Origin: an uncultured Spirochaetota bacterium
Lineage (GTDB): Bacteria > Spirochaetota > Brevinematia > Brevinematales > JAOACQ01
Direction of reading: 5' to 3'
DNA length: 64,000 nucleotides
NCBI GenBank assembly: GCA_963835575.1
Contig: CAWIGG010000002.1
Location: forward strand, 1,952,001-2,016,000
Shown: positions 53,199 through 62,000 of the stretch, one piece after another
Layout: the number at the start of each line of letters is the position of its first letter
Numbering within the stretch: position 1 is the stretch's first letter
Notes under the pieces: model-generated
What the model was told of the DNA's origin: nothing
What the model saw: the letters and a program-made list of their open reading frames with translations, nothing else
Database searches by the model: none
Position numbers and translations under genes: made by a program

Positions 53199-54698
53199 AT
53201 GGATATAGCGACTTATACTGATTCGATCAAGCAGGCTGTGCTTAAAAACGAGCCTGTTGAATACCGGTTTGAATATATTACCCAGGATGAATCGGAATTC
53301 ATTGTCGAAGCTCTCAGCGTCATTTTACAGGAAATCAAAAAATCCCATCTCATCGAGGAAATATCCTACTTTCTCCGCGAGTTTGTCACCAATGCCAATA
53401 AATCCAATCTTAAAAGGGTTTATTTCAAATTCCTCAGCCTCAATATTGAAAACCCGAATAACTACCAGCAGGGTATGCAGACATTCGCGAAAGACCTTCA
53501 TGATAAGCTCAATCTGCTCAGCCGGGATTTTAATAAATACTCCCTTTATACAAAGGTAAACTATCATGTAAAAAAGAATGTCCTGACGATCACCGTCAAA
53601 AACAGCAATATTCCCACTCCCCAGGAAATGGATAGAATAAAAACTATGATCAAAGAGTCCAAACATATCCGCGATATAGCCGAGGCGTACCAGAACCTTT
53701 CCGACACTACTGAAGGCACGGGCCTGGGTTTGATATCCTCAATGCTGATGCTCAGGAGCATGGGACTGGATGAAAGCGCCTATAAAATCTCTCTGGATGA
53801 AAATAACCGCGAGACTATTGTCTCCGTAGACATTTTAATGGATTCAGTGACGGAGATGCAGGTCAGCTTTATTTCCGACCTGATCTTTAATGAGATCGGG
53901 GTCCTGCCTGTTTTTCCCGAAAAGTTAAACCAGCTCCAGAAAATGCTTTCAGACGAGGATATCGCCTTTTCCAAAGTGGCCGCAGTCATACATGGCGATG
54001 TTTCCTTAACAGCCGAGCTTCTCCGTATCGTGAATTCGGCGCAGTACATGCTGCCTCAAAAAGTCAGCAACATCACAAACGCCATTTCTCTCATCGGTGT
54101 AAAGGGTTTGAAAAGCCTTCTCTATTCCTACGGCACCCAGAATATACTCACGCAGAAATTCGGAAAAATGGACGAGATATGGGGGCATGCATACCGGGTC
54201 GCCTCCTATGCCTATCATCTGGCGAACGATATGAAACGGAAAGACCTGCAGGATGACGCCTATATCGGGGGCATTCTGCATGACATGGGCAAAATCATCG
54301 CCATTACAGCGTATCCGGGTATGATGGAAAAAATCGATACACACTGCTCTGATAAAGGGATCAACGGCAATATGATCGAAAGGCTTGCGATGGGAATCTC
54401 CCATGCCAAAATCGGCGCCGAAATAGCGCGCCACTGGAATTTTCCTGATACCATTGTAGACGTTCTGAGCTATCACCATCAGCCGCTTCTGGCGCCGGAT
54501 GAGACAAAGGACATTGTTTACCTTGTTTACCTGTCCAATATCCTGGCCCATATCCAGGACGGGAATTTCTATTTTTCGCTTATTGAAAAAGACGTCCTCA
54601 AGCAGTTCCATATCAAAACAAAGAAAGAACTCATAGCTCTTGAAAAAACCCTGGACAGATATTACCAGGAACAGGTCAAAAAAGCCAGTACGATGTAG
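53199..54698 (+). CDS. HATPase-like plus HDOD/HD domain protein
   Basis: REFVTNA N-box, GTGLGL G-box; LPVFP, VNSA, GGILHDMGK, SHAKIGA..WNFP, YHH. Confidence 0.85.
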   Translation: MDIATYTDSIKQAVLKNEPVEYRFEYITQDESEFIVEALSVILQEIKKSHLIEEISYFLREFVTNANKSNLKRVYFKFLSLNIENPNNYQQGMQTFAKDLHDKLNLLSRDFNKYSLYTKVNYHVKKNVLTITVKNSNIPTPQEMDRIKTMIKESKHIRDIAEAYQNLSDTTEGTGLGLISSMLMLRSMGLDESAYKISLDENNRETIVSVDILMDSVTEMQVSFISDLIFNEIGVLPVFPEKLNQLQKMLSDEDIAFSKVAAVIHGDVSLTAELLRIVNSAQYMLPQKVSNITNAISLIGVKGLKSLLYSYGTQNILTQKFGKMDEIWGHAYRVASYAYHLANDMKRKDLQDDAYIGGILHDMGKIIAITAYPGMMEKIDTHCSDKGINGNMIERLAMGISHAKIGAEIARHWNFPDTIVDVLSYHHQPLLAPDETKDIVYLVYLSNILAHIQDGNFYFSLIEKDVLKQFHIKTKKELIALEKTLDRYYQEQVKKASTM

Positions 54699-55083
54699 TT
54701 CTATCTGTCAGGGCTGCCCTGAATACCAAGACACAAGGGCACTAAGATCACCAACTTTGGGTTTTATTTTTAATACCTCATATTTCTTTGTAGACCTTCG
54801 TAACCGGAGCCTGTTCCAATCGAAAGTGATGAATACTCTTCGTGGTTATCTTCCATACATTTTTTTACAATTATTTTATACACTTATATTTCTTTTCAGA
54901 AGGGCAGATTTAGTTGTTTTTCGAAATAACATCTTTTTTGAAAGGAATAATATCGAAATCATATTCTTTTTTCTAAAAACTAAGCGCCTAAGAATACTAA
55001 CTTTGAATTTTATATTTATTACTGAAATTCTCTGGCGTCTTTTTTAAAAACCGCTCCCGTTCCCGGTGTTTCCGTAGATAATT

Positions 55084-55305
55084 TCAATACATTTTGCTGA
55101 TTTTATTTTTTTGTTTCTTTCTTGTTATTTCATTAAAAATATCTTCAATACTGTACCGGTCCTGCCATTTATAACGGTCTTTTGTATAATTGCCGTAACC
55201 GGAATTTAATTCCTGTATAAACCGGATCATGCCGATAGGACCGAGACTTTTATTGAGCGCCTCAATACCCTTTTCCCTGATTTCTTCTATACTTAAAAGT
55301 TTCAT
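55084..55305 (-). CDS. Small protein, putative antitoxin downstream of PIN gene
   Basis: EIREKGIEAL.KSLG..G.IRFI....GYGNYT.DR; ATGA overlap with the PIN stop. Confidence 0.75.
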   Translation of the reverse strand: MKLLSIEEIREKGIEALNKSLGPIGMIRFIQELNSGYGNYTKDRYKWQDRYSIEDIFNEITRKKQKNKISKMY

Positions 55306-55754
55306 AGATTTTCCTCCACCCATGTTAACGGGTTTTGTATCTTCACATTTATCTTATTCTTAAATCTATTATAAATCATAACAATATTATCATCAGTTGT
55401 AAGAAAACTATCAATAAAGCCGTATTCGGAGGATGATATATGTAACGCGTCGAATGATTTAAATCCAAATTTTTTTAATTCCTCAGCCCGTTTTCTAATT
55501 TTATCATTTATTTTAATAATCTCCTTAAAATACCTGATATAACCTTTAAGCTGTGTTTTTCTTACAAAATTCGGCGTCTTTTGAATCTCAAATAAACTAA
55601 TATCGCTTGCCAAAAGATGAATTTTATCATTTTGGGCCCACTTAACTATAATTAAAACGGCTTCGGACTCCATTCTTATACGGTCTGAATTCTGATCATC
55701 AAAAGGCCTGTTTAAACAGCAATTATCAAGGTAGATTCTTTTTCCATTACTCAT
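55302..55754 (-). CDS. PIN-domain toxin
   Basis: IYLDNCCLNRPFDD, DALH, FLTTDD. Confidence 0.88.
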   Translation of the reverse strand: MSNGKRIYLDNCCLNRPFDDQNSDRIRMESEAVLIIVKWAQNDKIHLLASDISLFEIQKTPNFVRKTQLKGYIRYFKEIIKINDKIRKRAEELKKFGFKSFDALHISSSEYGFIDSFLTTDDNIVMIYNRFKNKINVKIQNPLTWVEENL

Positions 55755-55810
55755 ATAAATATGTTAAAAATCTTATATGTTTAAGTCAAATAATTACTTA
55801 AAAGTGTTTG

Positions 55811-55881
55811 CCGCAGAGGCACAAAGCGCACGGAGATTTTTCTTTTTTGTGTTTTCCTCTGTGTACTTCGTGTCTCCGCGG
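55811..55881. repeat. Minimal triple-unit inverted-arm element (CGCAGAG subfamily)
   Basis: CCGCAGAGGCACAAAGCGCACGGAG ... CTCTGTGTACTTCGTGTCTCCGCGG. Confidence 0.8.
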
Positions 55882-55972
55882 TTATAAAATATTGATTAGA
55901 ATGTTGTACGAATAAAAAGAAAAACTTATAATTAAATTGTATTTAAAAATACTACGGTATAAGAGGCTCATT

Positions 55973-56722
55973 ATGGACAATGAAAAAAAGATCATTAAAC
56001 AGGGAAGGGATTTTCTGAAAACTTACTGGGACATGCTGGACGACATCAAAACCGATCAGCAAAAAGGCAAAGAAGTACCGGAACAGCAGAAGCCCTATCT
56101 TAAAGACGGCATCACCATTCCGCTTATTCCGCCTGAAAAATTCAATTTAGGAAAAATGCCGTTGATCGATGTCATTCTGAAAAGGCAAAGCCGCAGGAAA
56201 TATATAAATAATCCTTTAACCCTTGAGGAATTATCTTTTCTTCTCTATTCCACACAGGGAATAAAGAAATATACTGCCAAATACTCGTTCCGCACGGTCC
56301 CTTCAGGCGGCGCCCGACACAGCTTTGAGACATATCTTTACATTGACAAAGTCAAAGAAATTAATAAAGGCCTTTACCGCTATCTGCCTCTGGAACACCG
56401 GCTCTATCAAATAAAAGCTTCTCAGGATATGTACAGCGTATTGAATGAAGCCCTGCAGGGCCAATACTGGAACGCGGCCGTTGTGTTCATATGGGCCACA
56501 ATTCCATACAGAACTGAATGGAGATATTCTATTGTAGCCCATAAAATCATCGCCATTGACGCGGGCCATGTCTGCGAGAACCTCTATCTTGCAGGCGAAT
56601 CGATCGGCTGCAGCGTGTGCGCGATCGGCGCTTATGATCAGAAAAAGATGGATGAATTTCTTGAGGTTGACGGCAATGATGAGTTTACGATCTACGCTGC
56701 CACAGTCGGGAAAGTCGATTAA
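55973..56722 (+). CDS. SagB-type nitroreductase-family protein
   Basis: RQSRR.Y, RTVPSGGARH, DAGHVCENLYL, IGAY; start set at MDNE. Confidence 0.9.
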   Translation: MDNEKKIIKQGRDFLKTYWDMLDDIKTDQQKGKEVPEQQKPYLKDGITIPLIPPEKFNLGKMPLIDVILKRQSRRKYINNPLTLEELSFLLYSTQGIKKYTAKYSFRTVPSGGARHSFETYLYIDKVKEINKGLYRYLPLEHRLYQIKASQDMYSVLNEALQGQYWNAAVVFIWATIPYRTEWRYSIVAHKIIAIDAGHVCENLYLAGESIGCSVCAIGAYDQKKMDEFLEVDGNDEFTIYAATVGKVD

Positions 56723-56730
56723 AAAGGAGG

Positions 56731-57264
56731 TTGTTTATGAAAGAAATTTTTCTATCTTATGCCAAATACAACAAGGCCGCTAATGAGGAAATGCTCAAGC
56801 TGATAGAACCCCTGGACCGGGAAATAATCATGCGGAAAACAAAGGCGTTCTATCCTTCCATTTTCGACACATTGTCTCATATTCTTTTTACCGATATTAA
56901 CTGGATCAAGAGATTTAAAGAGGTTTTCACGGACAATCAATTACTGAATAAAACTCATTTCGCTTCAATGGAAACAGAAAATCTCAAAAAAGAACTGGGC
57001 CTGGAATATACAAGACTGTTTCAATGCAGGAAAGAACTGGATGAAATTATACTGCAGTTTATCGACGGGCTGGATGATGAAAAACTGGGTTCCGCAGTAT
57101 CGCTCCGATTTAAAAACCCCTCGGGCGATTTTCTGAATATTGTATTATGGAAAGCATTGATTCAGTGGTTCAATCATCAGACGCACCACCGGGGACAGGT
57201 TTCCATTCAGCTGGATATGGTTGAAGTCTATAATGATTATTCTTCATTTTTGAAAAAAACATGA
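56731..57264 (+). CDS. DinB family protein
   Basis: YNK.AN, SIFDTLSHI, FNHQTHHRGQ. Confidence 0.92.
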   Translation: MFMKEIFLSYAKYNKAANEEMLKLIEPLDREIIMRKTKAFYPSIFDTLSHILFTDINWIKRFKEVFTDNQLLNKTHFASMETENLKKELGLEYTRLFQCRKELDEIILQFIDGLDDEKLGSAVSLRFKNPSGDFLNIVLWKALIQWFNHQTHHRGQVSIQLDMVEVYNDYSSFLKKT

Positions 57265-57308
57265 TAAAACCTGAATTGAGCAATATTTTTGCTTAAGCTT
57301 ATTAATAG

Positions 57309-57359
57309 CCCAGCACCACTTTGTTTGCTTAATGGTTGGCATATCAAAGTGGTGCTGGG
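57309..57359. repeat. 15-bp perfect stem hairpin of the CCCTCACCA-related family
   Basis: CCCAGCACCACTTTG / CAAAGTGGTGCTGGG. Confidence 0.75.
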
Positions 57360-57421
57360 AATTATATATGCTATAGATAAATAAAAATAATCCCGGCCAG
57401 TATTTTTTTTGGAGGTTCATT

Positions 57422-58087
57422 ATGATAAAAATCTGGAAAACCGCCTCGATCGCTCTTTTTTGTTTATCAGGCTTGTTAATTGCCTGTACATCGATTGAAA
57501 AATTTTCGGCTTCCGTTTCCTATTTTACCGGGGATGTATTGATTAACGGAGAAGCGGTTAAAGCCGGGCAATCCTTGCCGGCTGTCTTTGTTATAAGGAC
57601 CGGAACAAACTCTGTCTGCGAAATTATATTCAACGATAAAAACATACTTCATTTCACGGAAAATTGCGATGCCACTCTGGACCTGGCCTCACCCCTGAAA
57701 TCAATCTCTCTAAGAAACGGCGGTATGGGAAGCGTCCTGAAAGGCCTGAATCCATCTAAAAACGGCGACGCGCCGCTTTTTAAAATCGAGACATCCACAG
57801 CCGCCGCAGCCGTCAGGGGAACAACCTTTTTTGTACAGGTTGAGGATGAAACCAATACCTATATCTGCGACTGCAACGGCGTACTGGACATGAGCGATGA
57901 GGCCGGGAAAAACACGATGAAAATCGAATCGGCCCATCATAAAGCCTTCCGTTTCGGCAAAAGCGAGAAAGGTTCTTATTATGAAAACGCCGGCCTCCTG
58001 TATCATGATGATCCCGGGGTAAATGACCTGGCCAAAAAAATCGGCGTGACGATCGACTGGACAAAGCCGGATAAAAAGCCTTATTAA
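57422..58087 (+). CDS. FecR-domain lipoprotein
   Basis: LIAC lipobox, IRTG.NS, TSTAAAAVRGTTFFV. Confidence 0.85.
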   Translation: MIKIWKTASIALFCLSGLLIACTSIEKFSASVSYFTGDVLINGEAVKAGQSLPAVFVIRTGTNSVCEIIFNDKNILHFTENCDATLDLASPLKSISLRNGGMGSVLKGLNPSKNGDAPLFKIETSTAAAAVRGTTFFVQVEDETNTYICDCNGVLDMSDEAGKNTMKIESAHHKAFRFGKSEKGSYYENAGLLYHDDPGVNDLAKKIGVTIDWTKPDKKPY

Positions 58088-58097
58088 AGGAGTTTTT

Positions 58098-58619
58098 ATG
58101 CCTCGAAAAGTTTTCCTGTATATCGCTTCCAGCCTGGACGGCTATATCGCCCGCACTGACGGGAGCATTGACTGGCTGGAAACAGACGAGCATCTCGGCT
58201 ATGAGGAATTCTACCAGGCTGTCGATACAATAATCGTCGGAAGAAAGACTTACGATCAGGCTCTCACTTTCGGCGAGTTTCCTTACAAAGGGAAAAAATG
58301 CTTCGTATTTTCCAGAAAAACAAAAAAAAAGGACCCGTATGCCGAATTTATCAATGAAGATGTCAAAATATTTTCAGAGCGCTTGAAAAAAGCGGACGGG
58401 CGGGCAATCTGGCTTGTCGGCGGCGCCCGATTGATCAAGGCCTTTTATGAAAACGACCTGATCGATGAATACATCATAACGGTTCTTCCGGTCATTCTAG
58501 GGAACGGGATACCGCTTTTTGAAAAGACGGATGCCGAAAGGAAAGTCCGCCTTGTTGATATCAAAAAGCATCGTAACGGCTTTGTCGAACTGAGATATTC
58601 AAAATTAGGAGAAAAATAA
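58098..58619 (+). CDS. Dihydrofolate reductase-like / RibD C-terminal domain protein
   Basis: IASSLDGYIA, GRKTY, WLVGG, PVILGNGIPLF. Confidence 0.92.
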   Translation: MPRKVFLYIASSLDGYIARTDGSIDWLETDEHLGYEEFYQAVDTIIVGRKTYDQALTFGEFPYKGKKCFVFSRKTKKKDPYAEFINEDVKIFSERLKKADGRAIWLVGGARLIKAFYENDLIDEYIITVLPVILGNGIPLFEKTDAERKVRLVDIKKHRNGFVELRYSKLGEK

Positions 58620-58622
58620 ATT

Positions 58623-58814
58623 ATGGATGGAACTGTACGCTCCCGGATCAAACCCGGATTAAAAGTCGCCATTGTCCTGAAAAAAGACCAGCCGACAGGC
58701 GCGCTCACAGAAGGCATCGTCAGGGATATTCTGACCAGTTCGCCGACTCACCCGCATGGCATCAAGGTCCGGCTGGAGAACGGCGAAGTCGGAAGAGTGA
58801 AGCAGATTTTATAA
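58623..58814 (+). CDS. YwbE family small protein
   Basis: VLKKDQPTG.LTEGIV.DILT.S..HPHGIKVRL..G.VGRV. Confidence 0.92.
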   Translation: MDGTVRSRIKPGLKVAIVLKKDQPTGALTEGIVRDILTSSPTHPHGIKVRLENGEVGRVKQIL

Positions 58815-58830
58815 CATCAGTGCTTAATAT

Positions 58831-59311
58831 CTCTTGCAAAGCTTGCACTGAGCCCTGCCGAATGCGGCGCAAAACCCGCAAAGAATGTATCGACCCCAAT
58901 TCCACGCGGATTTGCGCGGATGAAGCAGATTTACACAGATTAGAATAATGTATATAAGAAAAATTCCGTATTACATTACTCACAACCTTCCAGACGGTCT
59001 TCCCCAATTTCCTTCTTTGCGCCCTCTGCGACTTTGCGTGAACATTCAATTCACGTTTTCCCCGTTATCAGCACCTCTGCGGTGAATTAAATACTTTTAC
59101 TAACCAACTTTCTCGTAAAAATTATAAATCCTCATAAACTTGTGGTGAGCCTGCCGAATCCATCCGTCTCATCTGTGCTAATCCGTGTGAATAATCGGAT
59201 ATTATAAAAAAGAATCATTTTATAAAATCCTTAATCTTATAAAAACTTCAGTATTAAACCATTTTTATTCCCATTTTCCCAGTCCTTTGCGACCTCTGCG
59301 TCTTTACGTGA
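58831..59311. repeat. Cluster of nested triple-unit arms and REP-like motifs
   Basis: CGCAAA-type arms at 58833, 59013, 59284; CGCGGAT/CACAGAT-type arms at 58902, 59158; GAGCC(C)TGCCGAAT near 58850 and 59147. Confidence 0.8.
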
Positions 59312-59358
59312 TTGATCCCTCAAAAGCATACAGAAAGTCATCTTCAGAATAATTTAAC

Positions 59359-60114
59359 TTATTTCTGTTTCAGCATCAGGATATTGATCAGCATCTTGAG
59401 ATGGTTCAGCCTGAGGGCGGACATTTCAATACCCACATCCGTGTCGCCATGGCTCTGCATTTTTTCCATGTTCTCCTGCGCGATACTTTCTCCCGATACA
59501 AGGTATTCAAGCCCTTTCATTTTCGCCCCGGTATTCGTCCTTTCTTTTATGAAGAAGTCAATCAGATTGTCCACATTGTCCAGACGGAAATGGTCCTCTC
59601 CCGTAAAAACCTTTTTTATGACCCCGCTTTCAAAAAGCCCCTCGAATATTTTCTTTGTATTGAATTCCGACTCTTTCAGAGTGAATACGATCTGATCATA
59701 CTGCTGAGCGACCTCGCTGTCGATCAATTCCCTGTCGGAATCGGACAGTATGCCGTTCGATTTCTGGAGCAGAAGCTCGCGTATCCTCTGCAGGATTTCA
59801 ATGATATTCCCCAGGATGGCATCCTGGTATTTATAATAGGAGATCATATCGGACTGGTTCTCAATATCCTTTCCAAAAGCCCGGATATGCTTCTCGAGCT
59901 GTTCATAGATGGCATAATTGGCCGGGTCGTCAACCAGGAGTATTTTTCCCTGGGACAGGCGATTGATATTTTTATCATATTCATGCTCGGTACCGCTCAG
60001 GATCCGGTTCAGGAAAGTCAGCGAAGAATTTTCGGCGAAAAGGACCGATGATGAAACAAGTAAAATTAATATCATTATAATTTTATAAATGAAATACCTG
60101 ATAAAATAAATCAT
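59359..60114 (-). CDS. Divergent minimal flagellin-like protein with predicted Sec signal peptide
   Basis: RLSQG..DDPA, ILQRIRELLLQKSNG..SDSDR.LI..EV, EFN.KK; ER...GA....LEY, ENM, DTDVGIEM; hydrophobic N-terminus ending VLFA. Confidence 0.8.
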   Translation of the reverse strand: MIYFIRYFIYKIIMILILLVSSSVLFAENSSLTFLNRILSGTEHEYDKNINRLSQGKILLVDDPANYAIYEQLEKHIRAFGKDIENQSDMISYYKYQDAILGNIIEILQRIRELLLQKSNGILSDSDRELIDSEVAQQYDQIVFTLKESEFNTKKIFEGLFESGVIKKVFTGEDHFRLDNVDNLIDFFIKERTNTGAKMKGLEYLVSGESIAQENMEKMQSHGDTDVGIEMSALRLNHLKMLINILMLKQK

Positions 60115-60250
60115 GCTGTCTTTAATCCTCCCCTTTAATAATAATTAATAATGAAAATGAATACAATACTTTTAAGAATTATTTTTTTTATTTTGACAAA
60201 AAGGCGAATTATTCATAAATTTATATATAGGCAAAAAAGGAGGCTGTATT

Positions 60251-61108
60251 ATGTGGAGCGTTAAAGACAAAGTGGTTCTGATCACCGGGGCCACAAACGG
60301 CGTCGGGAGAGCGGCGGCGGAAGAACTCGCCCGCGGCGGGGCCAGGATCATCATCCATGGCCGGGACAGGGAAAAAACGGATAAAACCATATATGAGATT
60401 ATCAAGTCGACAGGAAATACCAATATCGATATGGCATTAGGCGATTTCACATCGCTCCCTGATGTAAAAAAAATGGGCGAAAATATAAAAACACGGTATA
60501 AAGGCCTGGATGTCCTCATCAATAACGCGGGCGGCGTATTTATGGATGAAAAGGAATCGAAAGACGGTTATGATATCACATTTCAGGTCAATTATCTCTC
60601 TCATTTCCTTCTGACCGGCCTTCTTCTGCCGCTATTAAAAAAGAGCGCACCCTCCCGCATTATTCATGTGTCATCGGAAGCCCACCGCTATCTGAAAGGC
60701 ATAGATTTTAACAGGCTGGCGAAGCCCGGCGGATACAGCGGTTTCCAGGCATACAGCGCGGCTAAAATAAGCGTGAATTTATTCGCCTATGAGCTGGCAG
60801 AGCGTTTAAAAAACCAGGGTATTACATCCAATGCCCTCCATCCCGGGGTTGTCAGGACCGGCTTCGGCCTGAATACGCATAATGTCCTCTTTAGGGGTCT
60901 GATGCATATTTTCGGGTTCTTCCTCATCACGCCGGATAAGGGAGCGGAAACAACAGTTTATCTGGCTTCTTCACCTGAAGTTGAAGGCGTCACCGGAAAA
61001 TATTTTAACAAGTGCAAAGCAGTGCCTTCGGCAAAAAATTCCGATAATAAGGAAGATCAGAAGAAACTCTGGGAACTCGGTGAAAAACTGGTCAAAAATT
61101 ATCTTTAA
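60251..61108 (+). CDS. SDR oxidoreductase (retinol-dehydrogenase-like), paralogue 1
   Basis: TGATNGVG, LINNAG, VNYLSHF, YSAAK, HPGVV. Confidence 0.93.
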   Translation: MWSVKDKVVLITGATNGVGRAAAEELARGGARIIIHGRDREKTDKTIYEIIKSTGNTNIDMALGDFTSLPDVKKMGENIKTRYKGLDVLINNAGGVFMDEKESKDGYDITFQVNYLSHFLLTGLLLPLLKKSAPSRIIHVSSEAHRYLKGIDFNRLAKPGGYSGFQAYSAAKISVNLFAYELAERLKNQGITSNALHPGVVRTGFGLNTHNVLFRGLMHIFGFFLITPDKGAETTVYLASSPEVEGVTGKYFNKCKAVPSAKNSDNKEDQKKLWELGEKLVKNYL

Positions 61109-61130
61109 ATCACATATTCTGGAGATATGA

Positions 61131-62000
61131 TTGAATAAAAATTCAGCATGGGAAATAAAAGATAAGGTTGTTCTGATTACGGGGGCAACCAGCGGCATCG
61201 GAAAGGCGGCAGCCATGGAACTGGCCCGGCTCGGGGCGAAAGTAATTGTTCATGGACGCGATAAAACAAGGACTGAAAATACCGTCCGGGAAATCATTAA
61301 GGCCACCGGCAACAAAAGTACCGGCATGATCCTCTGTGATTTATCATCGCTCGCGAATGTGAAGAAAATGGCCGATGTTTTTAAATCAAAATACAATGCC
61401 CTGCATGTTCTGATCAATAACGCCGGGGCTGTCTTTCTGGACAGGGAAGTTTCCCGCGACGGCTTTGAAATGACTTTCGCCGTGAATTATCTCTCGCATT
61501 TTCTGCTGACCAACCTGCTTTTGCCGCTTTTAAAAAAGAGCGCGCCTTCCCGCATCATCCATGTATCGTCCTCCTCACATAAGATAATTCATCATATCGA
61601 TCTGGAAAAAATCCCGGAAAGCGCGGGTCCTCTTCTTACAGCTTACAGCGCCTCAAAAGTTTGCGTCAATCTGTTCGCCTTTGATCTGGCCGAACGTTTA
61701 AAATCCTTCAATATAACCTCTAACGCTGTTCATCCGGGCGTTGTCCATACCGGCTTCGGAATGAATATCAAGAATAAGTTCTTAAAGTTTATTCTATCGC
61801 TATTTATGACTTTCGTCATTTCCCCTGAAAAGGGCGCACGGACTTCCATCCGCCTTGCGTCTTCGCCGGAATTGGAAGGCGTAACCGGAAAATATTTCGC
61901 TCACTCCAAAGAAGTACCTCCATCAAAATTATCAAATAATAAAGAACTTCAAAAAAAGCTGCGGGAAATGAGCGTCAGGCTTGTGAAAGATTATTTGTAA
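61131..62000 (+). CDS. SDR oxidoreductase, paralogue 2
   Basis: TGATSGIG, LINNAG, YSASK, HPGVV; TTG start. Confidence 0.93.
   Translation: MNKNSAWEIKDKVVLITGATSGIGKAAAMELARLGAKVIVHGRDKTRTENTVREIIKATGNKSTGMILCDLSSLANVKKMADVFKSKYNALHVLINNAGAVFLDREVSRDGFEMTFAVNYLSHFLLTNLLLPLLKKSAPSRIIHVSSSSHKIIHHIDLEKIPESAGPLLTAYSASKVCVNLFAFDLAERLKSFNITSNAVHPGVVHTGFGMNIKNKFLKFILSLFMTFVISPEKGARTSIRLASSPELEGVTGKYFAHSKEVPPSKLSNNKELQKKLREMSVRLVKDYL

Follow-up and report, generated by a model that had tools for sequence, protein, structure and literature searches.

The window, a stretch of 64,000 nucleotides from an uncultured Spirochaetota bacterium, carries on its reverse strand a gene for a flagellin homologue with a putative signal peptide. 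The family to which the protein belongs, here called F1, is previously unnamed, real and conserved. The gene and its features are the following.

59359..60114, reverse strand: gene of family F1 for a flagellin with a predicted signal peptide, 251 aa, ATG start; single copy, stand-alone
60126..60133, reverse strand: Shine-Dalgarno sequence GGGGAGGA, read from the sequence, 11 nt 5' of the ATG
60034..60114, reverse strand: residues 1-27, putative Sec/SPase I-type leader by hydropathy heuristics, conserved in 55 of 57 relatives
59995..60027, reverse strand: residues 30-40, ND0-derived helix SLxFLNRIL with a re-set hydrophobic face (L32, L35, I38)
59905..59940, reverse strand: residues 59-70, family signature LLxDDPAxYAIY, a shortened N-spoke
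59458..59862, reverse strand: residues 85-219, D1 helical bundle, superposing on flagellin from residue 65/66 onward
59773..59790, reverse strand: residues 109-114, QRIREL (FlaB 88-93), with E134 (FlaB E113)
59584..59658, reverse strand: residues 153-177, short linker replacing the D1 β-hairpin and outer loops of FlaB
59371..59448, reverse strand: residues 223-248, CD0-derived helix, ending 12 residues short of FlaB

Every flagellin motif quoted in a first-pass annotation of this DNA is present in the 251-residue frame, and the stretch joining EFNTKKIF to LDNVD measures about 20 residues, as that annotation had it. The strong ribosome-binding site that it claimed is there as well, in the form of the Shine-Dalgarno sequence listed above. 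The adjoining genes, which encode two short-chain dehydrogenases (SDR), a reductase-like ORF, FecR and an HDOD protein, are all non-flagellar, in line with the reported absence of flagellar neighbours. The order SDR, gene, FecR, HDOD is common to the gene's own genus only, and at the other loci of the family, where the surrounding ORFs were read by eye, neither shared nor flagellar neighbours were seen. The reported lack of an obvious sigma28 box also stands: with the consensus that we take to be that of sigma28, used in all upstream scans, the best site upstream of the gene has 3 mismatches, which is background (3 or fewer in 113 of 300 random windows), whereas one host flaB gene has a box with 1 mismatch. 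Across 24 upstream regions of the family plus that of the query gene, with 4 of 27 loci left out that had no usable start, the best sites had 3-5 mismatches, again the background level. A scan for sigma70 promoters and terminators at the gene gave nothing exceeding shuffled sequences.

On its 3' side the gene is followed by a non-coding gap of 740 nt (window positions 58620-59358), which holds a 27-nt imperfect direct repeat (59015-59041 and 59285-59311) and several short inverted repeats; these look like small dispersed repeat elements. At 53199-58619, small genes that by appearance are PIN-like, nitroreductase-like and DinB-like are inserted between HDOD and FecR; in same-genus genomes the HDOD and FecR genes adjoin the flagellin paralogue. 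On the other side, at 60251-62000, two paralogous short-chain dehydrogenase genes stand in tandem and are transcribed divergently from the flagellin gene; the genus relatives have one.

The leader, MIYFIRYFIYKIIMILILLVSSSVLFA, is 27 residues long and has a basic n-region (R6, K11), a hydrophobic h-region with a 9-residue hydropathy peak of 3.9, no lipobox Cys and an LFA end, which suggests Sec/SPase I-type cleavage between A27 and E28 (LFA/ENSS). Such a leader had been proposed for the query alone, and the homologue search extended it to a clade: in a test for a 9-residue hydropathy of at least 2 ahead of the conserved mature start, 55 of 57 F1 rows were positive, against 2 of 49 ordinary flagellins, and the two exceptions have leaders of 11-13 residues that are probably short start calls. 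In a second family, F2, all 25 of 25 rows were positive. The n-region is net positive in 49 of 57 F1 rows, and an AxA or small-x-small end directly precedes the conserved mature start in most of them; 51 of the 57 conform to a cleavage-site rule, a loose one with many matches within the Ser-rich mature start. Identity over 10 gene pairs is 22-46% in the leader and 56-78% in the mature part; synonymous sites are saturated in 7 of the pairs, and the other 3 give a dN/dS of 0.06-0.14. A variable leader combined with purifying selection is the behaviour of a cleavable Sec signal on a functional protein, and from the sequences we infer export of the mature protein to the periplasm by Sec. Spirochete sheath proteins reach the filament by this route and FlaB does not, according to the available text of three sources (bioRxiv 10.64898/2026.02.04.703737; 10.64898/2026.10.15.759423; PMC13144727).

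Homology to FlaB and predicted fold

Pfam Flagellin_N matched residues 36-159 of the query (E = 1.3e-15; 58.1 bits, cut-off 26.6), and Flagellin_C gave no match for the single query protein. The family profile, however, matched the C-terminal halves of solved flagellins with domain E-values of 2e-8 and 3e-9, and homology of CD1 and CD0 is supported by the common R214, G218, N237 and D247. The flagellin homology claimed at the outset thus passes the HMMER check, for the C-terminal half via the family profile only. Matches were also obtained with 24 NCBIfam flagellin or FlgL models, all far under their cut-offs; the best score was 59 bits, compared with flagellin cut-offs of 291-983, and TIGR02550 (FlgL) gave 56.3 bits against a cut-off of 127.2. 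The top match in sequence and fold searches is FlaB. Homology to spirochete FlaB, which consists of D0-D1 only (PDB codes 9pim, 10lk, 9lrz, 6pwb), extends over ND0, ND1a/b, CD1 and CD0, and the query is 29-30% identical to the three FlaB of its host. Unlike FlaB, it has a Sec-type leader and no sigma28 site, its hairpin and loops are deleted, its last 12 residues are absent, many invariant contact residues are replaced and its termini are predicted to be folded back.

Residues of host FlaB (286 aa) without a counterpart are 1-4, 37-38, most of 146-193, 245 and 275-286, and the mature N-terminus NSSLTFLNRIL aligns to NISAIFANRIL of FlaB. The D0 loss described earlier therefore holds for the trimmed ends (4 N-terminal and 12 C-terminal FlaB residues), but a large loss of D0 was an overstatement; the main deletion is that of the D1 β-hairpin region and outer loops, not of D0. 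The CD0 tail is incomplete, with FlaB 275-286 absent and AQA not conserved, and two residues are deleted from the N-spoke at LLxDDPAxYAIY, including the position of FlaB R38. A comparison of 58 F1 rows with 76 ordinary flagellins (FlaB numbering) found N65, D68, S71, Q88-L93, E113, F130-N131, D204, R214, G218, N237 and D247 to be kept in F1, and R35, K51, R53, Q55, G58, Q74, T75, G78, Q96, Q221-R223, E242, R244, Q265 and A272-A274 to be lost. Bulky hydrophobic residues have been gained on ND0 (L32, L35, I38), distal ND1a (M90, Y96, I105, L115), ND1b (V143, F144, L146), upper CD1 (L184, F187, I189) and CD0 (M241-L246), where M241, L242, I243, I245 and L246 form a new stripe on the CD0-derived helix; hydrophobics have been lost on lower CD1 (Y220, L231, M232, Y235). 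The mean hydropathy peak of CD0 is 1.97 in F1 and 1.39 in ordinary flagellins. Judged by its sequence, the query is a member of the flagellin superfamily that fails the defining tests of a filament flagellin.

The precursor was modelled with a pLDDT of 80.9 and the mature protein of 224 residues with a pLDDT of 86.6 and a pTM of 0.84, low confidence being confined to two spoke linkers; two of five mature models reached a pLDDT of 86. The mature model has no strand of at least 3 residues. In a VIA-align search the seven top rows were all flagellins (Z = 8.2-9.0, r.m.s.d. = 2.7-6.8 Å, 119-130 residues), scores that are weak alone for helical bundles and that agree with the sequence evidence. The superposed part is confined to distal D1 and runs from mature residue 58 to about 192, even where the D0 of the filament subunit compared is resolved. 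Foldseek, aligning the full length to filament subunits, gave r.m.s.d. values of 25-31 Å. The terminal helices of ordinary flagellin are ordered only inside the filament, and the superposition boundary coincides with the limit of the segment that lacks order in monomeric flagellin. As read from the superposition ranges, the terminal helices of the model appear to be folded back onto distal D1, and a bridge is formed between residues 33 and 223. The hydrophobic gains on ND0, ND1a, ND1b, CD1 and CD0 agree with this predicted fold-back. Among the sequence and fold matches to solved structures no family member was found, the nearest solved chains being ordinary flagellins (best E = 1e-35). A complex prediction for host FlaB and the mature protein scored 0.26 and 0.21 against a mark of 0.32, in a run in which the controls did not fold, and is not counted as evidence here.

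Distribution and descent of F1 and F2

A homologue search returned 22 relatives at 44-69% identity and one short ordinary flagellin, and a profile search of 1.84 billion representatives gave 49 members among its best 150 rows, fragments included. This search, which had no length limit, also brought up the leader-bearing F2, and no conserved fused form occurred among its best 150 rows. The named genome loci of F1 are Spirochaetota in 11 of 11 cases (Brevinematales, Spirochaetales, Spirochaetaceae), and the 116 members of the nearest Atlas cluster are mostly so. In a sample of 401 Spirochaetota genomes, F1 was present in 11 and F2 in 24, never together, and both were absent from 366, which implies that the role is dispensable. 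Within the host's own order, Brevinematales, F1 occurs in 8 of 35 genomes, always as one copy alongside three FlaB, and in the small-genome family of that order in 0 of 12. Public labels on the members are automatic ('flagellin', 'FlgL-like').

The host genome (4.39 Mb, 94% complete) encodes a complete set for a periplasmic flagellar filament, with 3 FlaB, 4 FlaA matches, FliD, FliS and one FlgL beside flgK, so that the endoflagella on which the first-pass annotation had made its periplasmic readings depend are represented by their filament genes. A transposase-like ORF lies directly 3' of one flaB gene (G000:C2:562167-562865). Ordinary flagellins and FliD are found in 34 of 34 other F1/F2 carriers as well, which is weak evidence because nearly all spirochetes have flagella. 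Replacement of FliD by the query is ruled out by the presence of FliD in these carriers and in the query's own genome.

Proteins of the sister family F2 (L079-L098; P0089, P0090, P0097, P0098, P0109) combine a leader, a conserved β-rich stretch (YLFxPxGxNFxVY...FIL) that replaces the first ND0 half, near-canonical spokes, a deleted hairpin and a hydrophobic C-terminal end. Relative to FlaB they delete 133-165, 182-189 and the last nine residues, and they keep N65, R89, R91, D106, E113, N131, D204, G218 and N237 in 25 of 25. In a tree built on 183 columns, without leader, middle or tails, support was 100/99 for F1, 99/90 for F2 and 98/86 for F1+F2. The joint clade lay outside the FlaB crown group in both trees, and a shared origin of F1+F2 with FlaB was not rejected (p-AU 0.27). 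One origin of F1+F2 within Spirochaetota is the simplest reading. With odds that we put somewhat below even, the two could represent an ancient spirochete flagellin lineage that passed from type III to Sec export and is now a self-capped periplasmic partner of the endoflagellum, F2 and F1 being successive steps.

Descent from short, hairpin-less flagellins of the Thermotogota, Bacillota or Synergistota type had been suggested by the first tree and was dropped because only P0103 stayed attached once the variable middle was removed. Six flagellins of 220-252 aa (P0024, P0103, P0120, P0138, P0147, P0150) are leaderless with a reduced middle; three of them are named from Thermotogota, Bacillota and Synergistota, and only P0103 joins F1+F2 (99/84). 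Within F1, P0072, P0076, P0079, P0081, P0067 and P0069 (197-238 aa) have partly or wholly lost the second ND0 half and the spokes; their D1 bundle and the hydrophobic helix at the C-terminus are still in place, and together they form a series of progressive reduction. In a single case, P0063, a foreign N-terminal part, which we take from its motif to resemble the start of a prolyl oligopeptidase, is followed by the last two thirds of an F1 protein; this is either a chimeric assembly or a fusion.

Filament contacts and candidate roles

In the flagellar filament, the β-hairpin is the upper subunit's part in both the 5-start and the 11-start contacts, and ND1a, ND1b and CD1 of the lower subunit receive it, as the available text of one structural study describes (PMC5643327). 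For Borrelia FlaB the accessible part of a preprint gives the upper-lower pairs R57-E92, N65-V95, R38-E77, S40-Q271, D182-N247, N131-D106 and H5-D297 (bioRxiv 10.64898/2026.10.15.759423), which we mapped onto host FlaB ourselves with an offset of 50 in the C-terminal half (D297 = D247). The lower-subunit positions E77, E92, D106 and D247 are acidic (D/E) in 51, 46, 51 and 45 of 58 F1 rows, and Q221 and N197 are lost. On the upper-subunit side, R38 and the D182 loop are deleted, and R57, N65 and N131 are kept in 49, 51 and 58 of the 58 rows. In F2, R89, R91, D106 and E113 are found in 25 of 25, and E92 is variable (8 of 25). These alignments suggest that the receiving face is better kept than the docking face, an asymmetry that is partial and not clean, and conservation of the kept residues may reflect no more than the demands of the fold. 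A better kept receiving face favours a periplasmic binder of the FlaB docking face over a tip cap. QRIREL and E134 form the retained surface that is both acceptor and TLR5 hot spot; the retention of the QRxREL segment of the TLR5-recognised region had been pointed out before, correctly, and the hot-spot residues R89, L93 and E114, so named in the available text of PMC5247705, are kept in F1 at 83%, 98% and 91%. A TLR5-related role is not needed to explain QRIREL, because QRIREL is also a filament contact surface.

We propose, at a probability of roughly 0.4, that the protein mimics flagellin in the periplasm without polymerising and binds either FlaB that has gone astray or filament ends that lie exposed. 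A flagellin paralogue would have left the flagellar type III route, and its cleavable leader would direct it through Sec to the periplasm, where spirochete filaments lie. There the mature protein of 224 residues is predicted to fold alone, with the distal three-helix bundle of D1 retained and the terminal helices packed back onto it through the new hydrophobic residues. It could not join the 11-protofilament core as a normal subunit, because the β-hairpin and many polar contacts of an incoming subunit are lacking. Much of the subunit-receiving surface (QRIREL, E113, D/E77, D/E106, D247; FlaB numbering) would remain, and in the least certain step this surface might bind the docking face of FlaB on monomers leaked into the periplasm or, alternatively, at the proximal end that a filament exposes when it breaks or detaches. 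The protein might thereby serve as a trap or end-guard accessory to the endoflagellum. Stray or unpolymerised periplasmic FlaB is a known burden in Borrelia, to judge by the title of PMID 30883947 as cited in PMC11873206. Counted against the proposed role are the absence of flagellar neighbours, the lack of a sigma28 site above background and the patchy presence of the family.

If the proposal is right, the protein would be a hitherto undescribed part for quality control or for guarding filament ends, of no use to any exoflagellated bacterium. Bacterial flagellins are regarded as type III substrates that fold only in a filament, and a conserved family that swaps the export route and apparently folds alone breaks both expectations, as a clean example of a secretion-pathway change in evolution. 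It is possibly a new part of the endoflagellum, a candidate addition at a time when the sheath inventory of this organelle is growing, and could supply a soluble natural tool for probing FlaB docking and the handling of stray periplasmic flagellin. Public annotation mislabels its members as FlgL or flagellin. The carriers in these samples are uncultured, the role is accessory and its function is one that we infer.

Besides FlaB, three known systems resemble the family in part. The closest case on record, Campylobacter FlaC, is, in the available text of PMC4863622, a short flagellin without D2-D3 that is dispensable for motility and has a stand-alone role, but there it leaves through the flagellar type III system and has host TLR5 as its target, whereas the query has a Sec leader. 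FlaC was set apart from the family by description, 'signal peptide' being absent from the text of PMC4863622; two Campylobacterota clusters are near neighbours of the family by language-model features, and the family occurs in uncultured spirochetes, FlaC in Campylobacter. FlgL/HAP3 shares a flagellin-like D1 that offers a receiving surface to flagellin, a DDP motif and a fold match of Z = 6.8-8.0, and several family members carry the automatic JGI label 'flagellin-like hook-associated protein FlgL'. However, the host has a separate full-length FlgL beside flgK elsewhere in its genome, the family profile matches FlaB with E-values of 1e-24 to 1e-29 and gives no match to the host's own FlgL at 1e-20, and FlgL, unlike what is proposed for the query, leaves by type III export and has a fixed place in the axial structure. 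FlaA, FlaAP, FcpA and FcpB take the Sec route to the periplasmic filament, as the query would, and likewise have lineage-specific accessory genes; FlaA is a β-rich jelly roll, and no sheath protein is flagellin-derived in the descriptions available. The same is true of the many Sec-type sheath proteins in recent Leptospira and Treponema filament structures, as far as the accessible text describes them (PMC13518957; PMC13439194). The query has no sequence match to a sheath protein, the FlaA domain PF04620 being absent from its Pfam matches up to E = 1, and a full-text literature search that took in few subscription papers found, in the text available, no description of a Sec-exported bacterial flagellin.

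The export route that the query would share with sheath proteins also fits a minor sheath protein, lying on the side of the FlaB core or on other sheath proteins like FlaA, FlaAP and Fcp. The accessible text on Leptospira describes sheaths of 9-12 proteins, lineage-specific and with one unassigned (PMC13518957), and the patchy, lineage-specific presence and stand-alone genes of the family fit as well. We nonetheless consider a sheath role unlikely: no solved chain is closer than the ordinary flagellins, and the QRIREL face belongs to the core contacts, so that its conservation would go unexplained if the protein bound laterally. Also unlikely is self-assembly, either head to tail or as a small oligomer via the hydrophobic terminal helices, giving a polymer that has no channel and does not depend on FlaB. 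F1 does keep both residues of each of the distal D1 pairs R57-E92 and N131-D106, and a more hydrophobic CD0 (1.97 versus 1.39) is expected if no export lumen is needed, but the hairpin and many invariant flagellin contact residues are lost, P0072, P0076, P0079 and P0081 delete much of ND0 and the spokes, and the monomer model buries the termini. Recruitment of the flagellin fold to a non-flagellar periplasmic job as scaffold or ligand, possibly with an uncleaved leader as anchor, would account for the missing flagellar neighbours and sigma28 site and for the strongly remodelled surface residues, and cleavage does depend on a loose rule (51 of 57). Confinement of the named matches to Spirochaetota, the flagellin contact residues that both subfamilies, at 30-40% identity, still have, and the AxA or small-x-small ends before the mature start in most rows make it rather unlikely.

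The TLR5 hot spot, kept at the percentages given above, and the precedent of FlaC as a non-motility flagellin acting as a released effector (PMC4863622, available text) would suit a protein released beyond the outer membrane to act as a signal or decoy towards predators, phages or the flagellin receptors of eukaryotes. This is improbable: FlaC takes the flagellar type III route, the hot-spot residues also take part in filament contacts, and changes have occurred in D0, a contributor to TLR5 activation. Every named carrier is a metagenome-assembled genome for which no link to a host was found, and the gene does not occur in the order's small-genome family (0 of 12). A cap or length modulator, as entertained in the first-pass annotation, would act as a terminator, sitting at the tip where the filament grows and so fixing its length. 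It could draw on the docking-face residues R57, N65 and N131 kept in F1 and on the trimmed C-terminal tail, but fits poorly and is quite improbable, since loss of the hairpin, R38 and Q221-R223 with a kept receiving face is the reverse of what a tip blocker needs, and FliD is kept by all 34 carriers and the query's own genome. The low score against curated flagellin models (59 bits, with cut-offs of 332 or more) might recall a decayed flagellin or a recent chance fusion, an explanation that we can hardly credit. Decay of a canonical flagellin had been named among the findings that would undo the first reading; the family has intact frames of 228-262 aa across many clusters, forms one clade (100/99) and is under purifying selection, with dN/dS at most 0.14.
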